DNA of 1,162 nucleotides, from assembly GCA_000004985.1 (NCBI GenBank), contig GG739521.1; one strand, written 5' to 3'. The notes beneath the pieces were generated by a model. That model made no database searches and was not told where the DNA came from. It saw only the letters and a program-made list of their open reading frames with translations. Shown piece by piece: positions 1-1,162 of this stretch. The number at the start of each line of letters is the position of its first letter. Position 1 is the stretch's first letter. This DNA is from Naegleria gruberi. Its lineage: Eukaryota. The position numbers and the translations under genes were made by a program.

Positions 1-44
1 ACATGATATATAATAATATCAATTTTTTGAGGTACCCAACTCCC

Positions 45-76
45 GAACGGCTGCGATTCAGACGGTTCCGTAATTG
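45..76 (+). repeat. Direct repeat copy A: GAACGGCTGCGATTCAGACGGTTCCGTAATTG (core GCGATTCAGACGGTTCCG at 53-70)
   Basis: Aligns with 125-156 at about 22 of 32 identities. The 18-bp cores differ at only 2 positions. Copy spacing is 80 bp. Confidence 0.6.
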
Positions 77-112
77 CATAATCAATGAATGTATCGCGTA
101 GCTAACGTTTTC

Positions 113-123
113 AAAAAAAAAAA
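113..123 (+). repeat. Poly(A) homopolymer run, A11
   Basis: Read directly from the sequence. It lies immediately upstream of repeat copy B. Confidence 0.9.
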
Positions 124-124
124 T

Positions 125-156
125 GAAGGAGGGCGATTCAGGCGATTCCGATTAAG
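125..156 (+). repeat. Direct repeat copy B: GAAGGAGGGCGATTCAGGCGATTCCGATTAAG (core GCGATTCAGGCGATTCCG at 133-150)
   Basis: Same alignment as copy A. It also carries the internal sub-repeat GCGATTC twice and an AAGGAGG Shine-Dalgarno-like heptamer at 126-132. Confidence 0.6.
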
Positions 157-193
157 AGACCGGTGTCCATAGATTTAATTTGATTATAAATAT

Positions 194-220
194 AGTGACT
201 TTCGGAATTCACTTTTTTTA
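194..220 (+). terminator. Weak terminator-like element: AGTGA-(10 nt)-TCACT inverted repeat followed by T7
   Basis: A 5-bp AU-rich stem (194-198 and 209-213) lies immediately before TTTTTTT (214-220). The stem is short and GC-poor, so any termination would be weak. It could equally be an operator-like inverted repeat that contains the palindromic GAATTC. Confidence 0.15.
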
Positions 221-425
221 CATTCGATTTAGACGATTTAATGGTAGTATAATTGAGTATACAGGTCTATTATAAAGAATATATTGGGTAGAAACGGGTT
301 AATTTTTTTAATCGATTTTATGCATATATTACAAGAGGAATATAATGTTTTACAGTATTTGGTTATTTTAAAATCGGCTAGAAATGAAGTGAGGACAAAA
401 ATTTTAAAAAATTTCAGTCAAAAAT

Positions 426-578
426 ATGGTCATATTTATCAGTAAACTATATCTTGTGGATTTATATATTAATAGATTTTTCGTTTTTGACACCTCTATT
501 GTAAACACTATAAGATTATTTATTTATAGTTATTTCCATATCTACTTTCGAGTTCATCGACCCCCCCGAAATGTCTGA
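426..578 (+). CDS. Small ORF, 50 codons (MVIFISKLYLVDLYINRFFVFDTSIVNTIRLFIYSYFHIYFRVHRPPRNV); probably a chance ORF
   Basis: Hand translation from the ATG at 426 to the TGA at 576-578. No Shine-Dalgarno sequence upstream. The I/F/Y/L/N-rich composition is what AT-rich DNA encodes by default. It overlaps the promoter-like elements and crosses the compositional boundary. Confidence 0.07.
   Translation: MVIFISKLYLVDLYINRFFVFDTSIVNTIRLFIYSYFHIYFRVHRPPRNV
487..514 (+). promoter_or_regulatory. Sigma70-like promoter: -35 TTGACA (487-492), 16-bp spacer, -10 TATAAG (509-514); predicted TSS about 521, reading into the GC-rich domain
   Basis: The -35 hexamer is a perfect consensus match, the spacer is 16 bp, and the -10 matches 5 of 6 consensus positions. 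Caveat: AT-rich DNA yields promoter-like hexamers by chance. Confidence 0.3.
522..529 (+). promoter_or_regulatory. Alternative reading: archaeal/eukaryal-type TATA-like box ATTTATAG about 27 bp upstream of the GC-rich onset
   Basis: The TATA-like octamer is centred about 26-30 bp upstream of the C7 run and compositional switch at about 556-561, which matches archaeal TATA-to-TSS spacing. This applies only if the source organism is archaeal or eukaryotic, which I cannot determine. Confidence 0.12.
561..567 (+). repeat. Poly(C) run C7 marking the AT/GC compositional boundary
   Basis: TCATCGA-CCCCCCC-GAAATG. G+C content jumps from about 23% to over 55% within the adjacent blocks. Confidence 0.9.
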
Positions 579-588
579 ACTTCAGTTC

Positions 589-951
589 CTAACCTTGCGG
601 ACAGCAGGATCCTAAGGGATTACCCTCATCGAGGGTATCAACGCCCTTCGGAGCCCCCAATGGGTCAACCACCCGTTGGGGCCTGCTGTTCACACCGGGG
701 GTCGGTAACCCTCCCCGCCTGATGAAGGGCGGTGGGCACCCCCAGCCCTTGCGGCTGGGAGCCAAGGCAGCGCGTAACTGCGGGGCGCTGCTAACCAACC
801 AACCAAACCTGACCCGCCACCAGCCAACCAGCCCACCAGCCAGCCAACCACCAGCCACGCGCCCTCTGGCCCACCCAGGCCACGCGTGCGGTCGAGGCAC
901 CCTACAGCCAGCCGGCAGAACCCACGGCCATTCCCACGGACAACGGTCCAA
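589..951 (-). CDS. Probable spurious ORF (120 aa, the only ORF in the supplied track); not a credible protein
   Basis: The translation has about 13 Trp in 120 residues (about 11%, against about 1% typical) and is dominated by W/R/G/P/A. That is exactly what the reverse complement of the CCA/CAGCC low-complexity tract produces (TGG codes W, GGC/GGT codes G). It has no recognisable domain and overlaps the hairpin cluster. Confidence 0.05.
   Translation of the reverse strand: MDRCPWEWPWVLPAGCRVPRPHAWPGWARGRVAGGWLAGGLVGWWRVRFGWLVSSAPQLRAALAPSRKGWGCPPPFIRRGGLPTPGVNSRPQRVVDPLGAPKGVDTLDEGNPLGSCCPQG
621..637 (+). other. Hairpin TACCCTC-ATC-GAGGGTA, 7-bp perfect inverted repeat
   Basis: Reverse complement of TACCCTC is GAGGGTA; the loop is 3 nt. 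Confidence 0.6.
643..654 (+). other. Stem with UUCG tetraloop motif: GCCC-TTCG-GAGC
   Basis: C646:G651 closes the TTCG loop. G643:C654 and C644:G653 extend the stem with one mismatch. C(UUCG)G is a classic stable RNA tetraloop if the + strand is transcribed. Confidence 0.35.
697..713 (+). other. Hairpin GGGGGT-CGGTA-ACCCTC, 6-bp stem including one G:U pair
   Basis: Pairs are 697:713, 698:712 (G:T), 699:711, 700:710, 701:709 and 702:708. Confidence 0.4.
715..732 (+). other. Hairpin CCGCC-TGATGAAG-GGCGG, 5-bp stem and 8-nt loop containing TGATGA
   Basis: Reverse complement of CCGCC is GGCGG. The loop contains UGAUGA, which resembles a C-box or k-turn motif but is a weak signal on its own. Confidence 0.4.
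741..759 (+). other. Hairpin CCCAGCC-CTTGC-GGCTGGG, 7-bp perfect stem and 5-nt loop, of the CAGCC/GGCTG family
   Basis: Reverse complement of CCCAGCC is GGCTGGG. It has the same stem core as the terminal tandem hairpins GCAGCC-TTTT-GGGCTGC. Confidence 0.6.
767..791 (+). other. Hairpin GCAGCGC-GTAACTGCGGG-GCGCTGC, 7-bp perfect stem and 11-nt loop
   Basis: Reverse complement of GCAGCGC is GCGCTGC. Partly competes with an alternative CCTTG/CAAGG pairing at 747-767. Confidence 0.55.
791..860 (+). repeat. C/A-rich low-complexity tract of degenerate CCARCC/CAGCC microsatellite-like repeats; G/T-rich on the minus strand
   Basis: CTAACCAACCAACCAAACC...CCACCAGCCAACCAGCCCACCAGCCAGCCAACCACCAGCCACG. 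CAGCC occurs at 821, 837, 841 and 852. The minus strand reads ...GGTTTGGTTGGTTGG with many GG tracts. Confidence 0.8.
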
Positions 952-1015
952 CCCGCTGCCAGTCCTGACCCCAGGGCTGTCCAGGGAGCCTCCCGCGTGT
1001 GTGACCCGGGAGCCT
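854..1015 (+). repeat. Cluster of short closely spaced direct repeats: GCCACGCG twice (854-861, 879-886), CCCACGG twice (921-927, 933-939), CCAGGG twice (971-976, 981-986), GGGAGCCT twice (984-991, 1008-1015)
   Basis: Read directly. Copy spacings are 25, 12, 10 and 24 bp. This is consistent with low-complexity GC-rich spacer or repeat DNA, not coding sequence. Confidence 0.6.
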
Positions 1016-1059
1016 AGGAGGGCCCCCCAACCGTCCGGCCCAACCGCTGCCCCTGGGGC

Positions 1060-1067
1060 CGATTCAG
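1060..1067 (+). repeat. Third occurrence of the CGATTCAG octamer (CCGATTCAGATA), inside the GC-rich domain just upstream of the tandem hairpin array
   Basis: The exact 8-mer is shared with 55-62 and 135-142. Three copies of one 8-mer in 1.16 kb is unlikely by chance, with roughly 0.02 expected per additional copy. Confidence 0.45.
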
Positions 1068-1074
1068 ATACCTC

Positions 1075-1162
1075 AACCGCAGCCTTTTGGGCTGCCCACA
1101 GCCAAACCGCAGCCTTTTGGGCTGCCCAGATCCTACCAGCCTACCACCGCAGCCCTTTGGGC
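1075..1162 (+). repeat. Tandem array of hairpin-containing units AACCGCAGCC-TTTT-GGGCTGCCCA: copy 1 at 1075-1098, copy 2 at 1105-1128 (identical), variant copy 3 at 1145-1162 (CCCTTTGGGC) truncated by the window end
   Basis: The spacing between copies 1 and 2 is exactly 30 bp, with a 6-bp linker CAGCCA. The spacing between copies 2 and 3 is 40 bp. Each unit contains the inverted repeat GCAGCC/GGCTGC with a T-rich loop. The array continues beyond position 1162. Confidence 0.75.

Follow-up and report, generated by a model that had tools for sequence, protein, structure and literature searches.

The window (the whole stretch of 1,162 nucleotides analysed here) very probably comes from the circular extrachromosomal rDNA element (CERE) of an amoeba resembling Naegleria gruberi, on which it flanks the 18S rRNA gene on the 5' side. 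A metagenome scan with the hairpin repeats at the 3' end of the window retrieved the contigs L002 (14.4 kb), which matches window positions 3-1162 at 97% identity, and L003, which matches positions 431-1162 at 98.6% identity, and a second protein look-up added L019 and L020, with 98.5% identity to the window. All L-numbered loci are metagenomic contigs whose species labels are inferred. The 18S gene, with CTGGTTGATCCTGCCAG as its 5' end in L003 and L019, starts in these two contigs ∼270 nt past the end of the window, the strand of which is the rRNA strand, and in L002, L003 and L019 the window is physically linked to a single 18S-5.8S-28S cistron. L002 contains eukaryotic LSU, 5.8S and SSU rRNA as well as a GIR1 branching ribozyme; the GIR1 twin-ribozyme intron is located in the SSU, and its ORF encodes a His-Cys box homing endonuclease with 89% identity to that of Naegleria italica and 82-88% identity to other Naegleria proteins.

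The sequence of L019 recurs every 13,799 bp, which indicates a circular unit, and the LSU of L004 wraps around the contig ends; in both cases the signs of circularity are at the level of the assembly. When compared with the CERE of N. gruberi EGB (PMC5805870), the L019 circle has a size of 13,799 versus 14,007 bp, an overall GC content of 40.7% versus 40.8%, an rDNA of 5,801 bp (46.6% GC) versus 5,855 bp (46.5% GC), a non-ribosomal spacer (NRS) of 7,998 bp (36.4% GC) versus 8,152 bp (36.7% GC), and repeats comprising a 34-nt family and a 371-373-bp tandem versus sizes of 34-371 bp. The published N. gruberi CERE (MG699123, AB298288; Mullican et al. 2018, PMC5805870) is the same kind of molecule, with circle size, GC content and the lengths of rDNA and NRS agreeing within 1-2%, and the two circles almost certainly belong to the same or to sibling species. 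From their sizes only, we infer that the 34-nt family and the 371-373-bp unit correspond to the published repeats of 34 to 371 bp. Further CEREs were retrieved via homologues of the endonuclease and via a spurious 18S ORF. Among these, L007 is from a sister species, having an 18S 99.4% identical to that of the window species, while the 18S of L017 is only 66% identical and this contig is therefore assigned to another heterolobosean genus.

Searches for other genetic content yielded little. An Rfam scan of the window returned sub-threshold E-values only and no known RNA, ARAGORN detected no tRNA in the window, and blastn of the window against phage and plasmid collections gave zero matches; a viral contig (L001) matching the 18-mer discussed below was rejected as a chance match. 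The hairpin-repeat pattern was unmatched in bacterial and archaeal genomes, and the 120-aa ORF of the GC-rich block had no exact-protein record. On the circle, the only ORFs matching Pfam are His-Cys box endonuclease-like, with no gene for a Rep protein, recombinase or repressor. The features of the window are collected in Table 1.

Table 1. Features of the window, in window coordinates.
Feature	Position	Strand	Remarks
3' part of the promoter-proximal unit of the 371-373-bp tandem spacer repeat	1-220	+	from comparison with L019
Copy A, long-form element AACTCCCG-AACGGCTG-CGATTCAG-ACGGTTCCG	38-70	+	conserved member
AACGGCTG core and CGATTCAG within copy A	46-53; 54-61	+	
Copy B, short element GCGATTCAG-GCGATTCCG	133-150	+	tandem GCGATTC; without the AACGGCTG half
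Degenerate third spacer copy TCGATTTAGACGATTT	224-239	+	3 mismatches to the 16-mer pattern; weak alone; missed in the sequence-only reading
Boundary box ACTTTCGAGTTCATCGACCCCCCCGAAATG, candidate (inferred) Pol I initiation region	544-573	+	AT-to-GC transition
GC-rich, C-skewed block, probable 5' external transcribed spacer of pre-rRNA	556-1162	+	same strand as rRNA
Microsatellite-like (AACC)/(ACCAGCCA)n run	793-857	+	Tandem Repeats Finder; length differs among assemblies
Third exact CGATTCAG	1060-1067	+	inside the GC-rich block; in every same-species assembly
Hairpin unit AACCGCAGCC(T/C)TTTGGGCTGCCCA, three copies	1075-1162	+	within the GC-rich block

Architecture of the window

Positions 1-555 are AT-rich (29% GC, with a stretch of 24% GC at ∼160-555) and are part of the NRS of the CERE, while the remainder has 67% GC and probably constitutes the 5' external transcribed spacer (ETS); Pol I initiation may lie near positions 545-590. 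The homology between the window species and L007 begins at window position ∼551, at a box CATCGACCCCCC(C/T)-AAAT which is likewise found in L004, and the GC-rich blocks of L002/L019, L007 and L004 all open with (C)GTCGACCCCCC(C/T)-AAAT. Boundary sequences vary from clade to clade.

A block of 60-77% GC ahead of the 18S gene, stopping ∼250 nt short of it, is present in L004, L007, L008, L017 and the L021/L022/L023/L026 clade, and the L011/L013/L015 clade shows it weakly or not at all. Since the junction is spanned by four independent assemblies (L002, L003, L019 and L020) and a GC-rich block occupies the same place in most of the other CEREs compared here, the two halves of the window belong together. 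The sharp AT/GC boundary is a biological one, between spacer and probable 5' ETS, and does not stem from a chimeric assembly. The sequence-only reading had reached the same conclusion from a motif shared across the boundary; that argument is not supported, the copy at position 1060 being unconserved in the aligned GC-rich blocks.

The GC-rich block folds more stably than shuffled sequences (z = -4.7) and is alignable at 65-69% between some species, and the final ∼210 nt ahead of the 18S gene are 79-84% conserved across Naegleria. In the microsatellite-like run, L002 has 25 + 2 additional bases compared with the window and L003. The hairpin units at the 3' end appear to be species-specific and could not be aligned in L007, L004 or L008. 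Inverted-repeat pairs between the left half of copy A and these hairpins (pairs I4, I6 and I9; 80-86%) were rejected as chance-like, the hairpins being unconserved elsewhere.

Repeats in the window and on the circle

The repeats that drew attention to this locus lie in the AT-rich NRS, ∼1.3-1.4 kb upstream of the 18S gene and ∼420-510 nt upstream of the GC-rich block. They had been described as a pair of direct repeats of ∼32 bp with 18-bp cores differing at two positions. The cores are well supported: positions 53-70 (GCGATTCAGACGGTTCCG) and 133-150 (GCGATTCAGGCGATTCCG) start 80 nt apart and are identical at 16 of 18 positions, which exceeds the best match in each of 60 shuffles of window 1-555 (maximum 15/18). 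The larger extent is not, the identity of 21/32 between 45-76 and 125-156 being no higher than that of the best 32-nt pairs in shuffled sequence (mean 20.9, maximum 23). Beyond the 18-nt core, copies A and B are different elements. Copy B does contain, as claimed, GCGATTC twice (133-139 and 142-148; period 9).

The octamer CGATTCAG occurs exactly at window positions 54, 134 and 1060. Its recurrence was correctly judged to be above chance expectation: allowing up to one mismatch there are six matches, all on the + strand, where 0.56 are expected, and none of 200 shuffles reached six. The 16-mer GCGATTCAGRSGRTTC has three matches in the window versus 0.04 expected, and eight in L002 versus 0.36 expected. 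The copy at 1060, for which we estimate a nominal chance probability of ∼0.005-0.02, is nevertheless treated as unsupported because the sequence around it deviates from the 16-mer and because it is missing from the aligned region of L004, the corresponding region being deleted in L007.

Counting beyond the window, as had been proposed, places the motif far above background and confines it to the spacer. On the 13,799-bp circle of L019, CGATTCAG has nine copies in rRNA-sense orientation and one in the inverted orientation, always upstream of the 18S gene: eight sense copies and the inverted one are in the spacer, one sense copy is in the GC-rich block, and the 5.8-kb rDNA has zero. Copy A is included in a 34-nt repeat family (CAACTCCCGAACGGCTGCGATTCAGACGGTTCCG), the second L002 copy of which is located 298 nt upstream, and a 48-nt family (CCGACTTGCGATTCAGAGGATTCTCTTAATCC...) also carries copies of the motif. 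Spacings between copies are irregular (80, 92, 206, 298 nt and more).

Each 371-373-bp unit holds a degenerate AACGGCTG element, copy A and copy B. L002 has one such unit and L019/L020 have two; in L019, 13290-13660 and 13663-14033 are 98.7% identical, and window positions 3-220 match both. Recent duplicates among the copies comprise a 174-nt pair at 97% identity, the 373-bp tandem and a 2.2-kb repeat in L022. The assemblies from the same species differ at too few positions for constraint to be gauged from polymorphism.

Conservation of the element among species

Comparison with other CEREs makes it quite likely that copy A belongs to an element family of the form AACT-YYYG-AACGGCTG-SGWTTYAG, which has multiple copies, mostly in sense orientation. 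AACGGCTG is the invariant part of the collected instances, with AACT-YYYG on its 5' side and SGWTTYAG on its 3' side. In the sister species L007, the copy A block TCCCGAACGGCTGCGATTCAG is preserved at 21/21 positions, whereas its left and right flanks are 34% and 46% identical (shuffled baseline 32%). At the homologous place of copy B, L007 shows background-level identity. To the earlier question whether the repeats and their 80-bp spacing are conserved in relatives, the answer is yes for copy A; copy B and the spacing are not conserved in this species. Copy B is likely to be a lineage-specific short form with two GATTC half-sites one helical turn apart, and in the window species GCGATTCAG, at a similar level of confidence, makes up the 3' half of the element.

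When the 4.5 kb ahead of the 18S gene were compared pairwise by blastn, these elements were involved in most of the short islands located upstream of the GC-rich block, and all same-strand matches to the window species were among the islands involving them. Among the 8-mers shared by no fewer than 4 of 8 spacers in an unbiased screen, AACGGCTG ranked second overall after poly-T and first among non-homopolymers; the 8 spacers contained 11 copies where 0.22 were expected, and each of the four full spacers had two or more. A position-weight-matrix scan gave 2-6 matches per spacer in L002, L004, L007, L008 and L017 versus 0-0.1 in shuffles. The words AACTYYYGAACGGCTG and ACTTKCGATTCAG describe the spacer element for sequence scans.

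The AACGGCTG family is present in L004, L007, L008, L017 and the L021/L022 clade. In total, the element has a range of roughly five lineages of Naegleria plus a further heterolobosean genus; it was not found in the 0.8-2.8 kb of spacer scanned in the L011/L013/L015 clade. Long-form and short-form (ACTTTCGATTCAG) copies are both found in the N. fowleri-like clade (L021, L022, L026); at other places, the spacers of L002/L019, L007, L008 and L021/L022 contain short forms related to copy B, ACTT(K)CGATTCAG(R)(S)GATT. The long form is biased in orientation, with ∼22 sense and 5 antisense copies. In L019, L007, L004, L008 and L017 a sense copy is located ∼270-515 nt upstream of the GC boundary, and L019, L007 and L017 contain back-to-back inverted pairs.

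Discussion

Our finding that copy A is preserved in relatives makes a site for a DNA-binding protein a reasonable reading, and the conserved spacer element is probably a protein-binding control site. That such a site might be present had been proposed for the repeats in general; the proposal is reasonable for the conserved copy A. The element would be a conserved regulatory repeat of the rDNA spacer, which is a known kind of feature. The best explanation taken as a whole combines the 5' flank of a CERE, a conserved element family and a role resembling that of Reb1/TTF-I sites, and we assign to this combination a probability of about 0.5.

The element contains an invariant AACGG, which we take to be the classical Myb core. 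c-Myb prefers a pyrimidine ahead of AACGG, unlike the instances of the element, in which this base is mostly G. A Myb-type protein, or one with tandem domains, could presumably be accommodated by the AACGG core and by the pair of GATTC half-sites spaced by one helical turn. In other rDNAs, Myb-like factors bind to Pol I terminators, promoter-proximal terminators and fork barriers, e.g., the mouse Sal box recognized by TTF-I and the sites of yeast Reb1/Nsi1 and S. pombe Reb1. Like these, the Naegleria element is short, polar, present in multiple copies in the spacer, and has a copy a few hundred bp upstream of the (here presumed) promoter, and its AAC-containing core is compatible with a Myb-type domain, as for Reb1/TTF-I sites. 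Its sequence, however, is unrelated to either the Sal box or Reb1 sites.

It is as a tentative proposal by analogy, less likely than not, that we suggest the element to be a promoter-upstream Pol I terminator or polar replication fork barrier of the Reb1/TTF-I type, a function favoured because of the polarity of the copies and their position upstream of the presumed promoter. The elements would bind a sequence-specific nuclear protein and act as polar sites upstream of the Pol I promoter; they might halt polymerases or replication forks crossing the spacer, might shield and activate the promoter, and might in this way coordinate replication with transcription on the 14-kb circle. Polarity is shared with Reb1/TTF-I-type sites, the ratio being ∼22:5 for the long form and 9:1 for CGATTCAG in L019. 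Known terminator systems place one copy ∼170-220 bp upstream of the transcription start, compared with ∼270-515 nt upstream of the GC boundary for the sense copy of the element. Pol I terminators normally cluster shortly downstream of the 28S gene, and the terminator function is weakened by the absence of copies in L019 from this region, the first one being 3.4 kb away from the 28S 3' end on its downstream side.

A less probable reading, likewise based on analogy, is that the conserved repeats would mark, or help to fire, the single replication origin of the CERE, as Type I elements do in Tetrahymena, with the adjacent stretch of 24% GC serving as the unwinding region. The 5' spacer of the Tetrahymena rDNA minichromosome contains Type I elements in tandemly duplicated ∼430-bp domains. 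Both this minichromosome and the Naegleria CERE are extrachromosomal rDNA with repeated islands in a divergent 5' spacer, and the Naegleria arrangement can be likened to that of the Type I elements, which all have one orientation and are located in a ∼400-bp tandem duplication upstream of the rRNA promoter. The Naegleria elements are conserved islands in the divergent 5' spacer, are housed in the 371-373-bp tandem duplication beside very AT-rich DNA, and form the inverted pairs described above. The likeness does not extend to sequence: Type I elements are A/T-rich 33-mers, whereas the core of the Naegleria element contains G+C. The Tetrahymena ORC RNA, which is derived from rRNA, acts through complementarity. 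When four variants of the element were compared with the 5.8-kb rDNA, the best complementary matches were within the range of shuffled controls, and RNA-guided origin recognition of this kind was rejected. No match to the yeast ARS consensus at 11/11 positions was found in the window or the NRS, and most eukaryotic origins are generally known not to be defined by sequence. In favour of this reading, the CERE of N. gruberi has only one origin, which was mapped to a 2.1-kb fragment within the NRS (PMC13315211), and vectors make use of a 636-bp piece as 'ori' (PMC12845041).

Xenopus 60/81-bp enhancers and the spacer promoters of flies and plants are repeats derived from promoters, and the elements could in principle be duplicated pieces of the promoter region which recruit Pol I factors, although we consider this improbable. 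Like the Xenopus repeats, they are spacer modules upstream of the gene promoter which vary in copy number, here through tandem duplication, and share a short word, ACTTTCGA, with the promoter side. This word is enriched over the spacers (9 seen versus 0.65 expected), the boundary box (ACTTTCGAGTTCA, 544-556) is similar to the short form of the element, and in L026 CGATTCAG is located 31 nt upstream of the GACCCCCC box. The similarity ends there: the repeats and the boundary side have in common only the 8-13-nt word ACTTTCGA(G)TTCA, nothing at the boundary corresponds to the AACGGCTG half, and the boundary sequences are not alike between clades. Local alignment of the repeat units with the AT/GC boundary region gave AT-rich noise only, which speaks against a spacer-promoter duplication. 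Unlike the Xenopus repeats, the Naegleria elements show no extended homology with the presumed promoter region and are dispersed instead of forming long regular arrays.

Slightly less probable still is that the motif is a non-functional repeat spread by unequal crossing-over or gene conversion among the ∼4,000 circles. Within-species duplication cannot yield the same 16-24-nt word in unalignable spacers, including that of another genus, and passive duplication explains neither a 21/21 block amid flanks of ∼46% identity nor the bias in orientation. What such a process could account for is that some copies are clearly recent duplicates, that copy B is unconserved in L007, and that the repeat content of the NRS is 31% in N. 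gruberi and 65% in N. fowleri (PMC5805870, PMC7714845).

Bacterial iterons are at least three near-identical repeats of 17-22 bp, spaced by ∼2 helical turns and located beside a rep gene. The suggestion in the sequence-only reading that the repeats are such iterons, an operator or a recombination core, taken here as sites for a plasmid initiator, a repressor or site-specific recombination, can be set aside as very improbable, since the direct repeats do adjoin AT-rich DNA on a circular and, as in theta plasmids, theta-replicating molecule (PMC13315211), yet this replicon is a eukaryotic nuclear rDNA circle devoid of Rep, recombinase and repressor genes, the units are heterogeneous, their spacing is irregular and not phased at ∼22 bp, and no finding pointed to a recombination core.

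The repeats of the N. gruberi CERE have been listed with their sizes, 34 to 371 bp (PMC5805870). The published accounts of NRS repeats covered here (e.g., PMC5805870) describe no shared motif, cross-species conservation, function, promoter or terminator, and searches of the literature collection used here for the motif words with Naegleria and for Naegleria Pol I elements gave nothing relevant; an earlier description is still possible. The NRS has been described as poorly conserved (PMC13315211), which, according to recent papers, blocks the finding of the origin by sequence comparison and hampers the development of episomal vectors for N. fowleri (PMC13315211, PMC13398248).

All rRNA genes of Naegleria are located on the ∼4,000 copies of the CERE, and a short word surviving in spacers that are otherwise unalignable provides a concrete target for footprinting and deletion. 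For N. gruberi, a cloned CERE that can be put back into amoebae is reported to exist (Nguyen et al. 2024, cited in PMC13315211). The relevance of the finding is mainly to those working on replication and transcription of the Naegleria CERE. It is tempting to speculate, though doubtful at present, that AACT-YYYG-AACGGCTG is an ancient, Heterolobosea-wide cis-element which defines the region controlling replication and transcription of the CERE, by being recognized by a factor that either licenses the single origin or arrests forks and Pol I at the promoter. If this were true, AACT-YYYG-AACGGCTG would be the first sequence handle toward stable CERE-based episomes in Naegleria fowleri.

Spacer duplications and the region downstream of the 28S gene

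The A-run at window positions 112-123 reads CAAAAAAAAAAATG in the window versus CACAAATAGAAGTG in L002, and the complete circle L019 carries both forms, one in each unit of a 373-bp tandem. It is this partition of the two versions between the units of L019 which identifies the window as the promoter-proximal unit of the two-unit variant of the tandem. In the N. fowleri-like clade, the spacer of L022 (a contig of NCBI genome assembly GCA_020720765.1) contains a direct repeat of ~2.2 kb (-6024/-3798 and -4667/-2441 relative to the 18S gene) with both the short-form and the long-form elements duplicated, and thereby recalls the 2,135-bp direct repeat in the circular rDNA element (CERE) of N. fowleri LEE.

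The words CGACTTGG and TCGACTTG of the 119-bp array in L002 rank second among the complex 8-mers common to the spacers (10 seen versus 0.26 expected), and GACTTGC likewise occurs 5' of the short-form elements (CCCCGACTTGCGATTCAG). The T3 terminator box of Xenopus is GACTTGC, to which the word in the Naegleria spacers is similar. The GACTTGC word of the array may be considered a candidate Pol I terminator, located closer to the 28S end. About 600 nt 3' of the 28S gene lies an ORF that encodes a His-Cys box endonuclease domain; it is 99% identical between assemblies and shares 81% and 58% identity with two further database proteins. This ORF is intact in L002 and L019. Its positional counterpart in N. 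gruberi EGB was described as a likely pseudogene (PMC5805870).

Features of the rDNA elements. L002, L003 and L019, assemblies of the window species; L007, sister species; L004 and L008, other Naegleria CEREs.
Feature	Location	Strand	Context
Conserved box ACTTTCGAGTTCATCGACCCCCCCGAAATG	window 544-573		exactly on AT-to-GC transition; common to L007 and L004
ORF, 178-182 aa (gene-finder call)	window 722 to end; L019 736-1272	+ (window)	within GC block
Microsatellite (AACC)/(ACCAGCCA)n	window 793-857		GC block; length differs among assemblies
Three hairpin units AACCGCAGCC(T/C)TTTGGGCTGCCCA	window 1075-1162 plus ~15 nt beyond (L003 645-740)		
Conserved ~210-nt pre-18S segment	L003 ~790-1003; L019 ~15050-15264		past window end
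119-bp tandem array, 5-6 copies	L002 5622-6335		
Endonuclease-domain ORF (PF05551), 351-355 aa	L002 6341-7408; L019 7861-8916	- (L002)	rRNA-sense
Twin-ribozyme group I intron	L002 13282-14434	-	within SSU gene
His-Cys box endonuclease, 254 aa	L002 13315-14079	-	part of SSU intron
GIR1	L002 14046-14242	-	part of SSU intron
Group I intron (RF00028)	L008 11247-11534		inside LSU rRNA gene

From the compositional boundary to the 18S gene

Homology between the window species and its sister species starts at the ACTTTCGAGTTCATCGACCCCCCCGAAATG box, which we suggest as a candidate Pol I start region. Within the GC block, the microsatellite is longer by 27 bases in L002 and is overlapped by the 178-182-aa ORF. 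The latter matches in position the 'second ORF upstream of 18S' of N. gruberi EGB, for which no similarity was reported; a Pfam search yielded no match, and the ORF is probably not coding. The hairpin units (6-bp stem, T-rich loop, spacing of 30-40 nt) were not found in the aligned region of other species and may be an expansion of the 5' ETS confined to this species.

The SSU intron of L002 is missing from L019 (compared at ~2100) and L020, which are of the same species at 99.5% identity, and this intron-plus/intron-minus polymorphism probably explains the break of the L002 assembly just before the 18S gene. Finally, the last ~210 nt 5' of 18S (TTTTTCAATATYGATTACCYGCRTTAAGCRGG...) are 79-84% conserved in all Naegleria loci, a degree of sequence conservation consistent with a functional 5' ETS harboring, e.g., processing or U3-binding sites.
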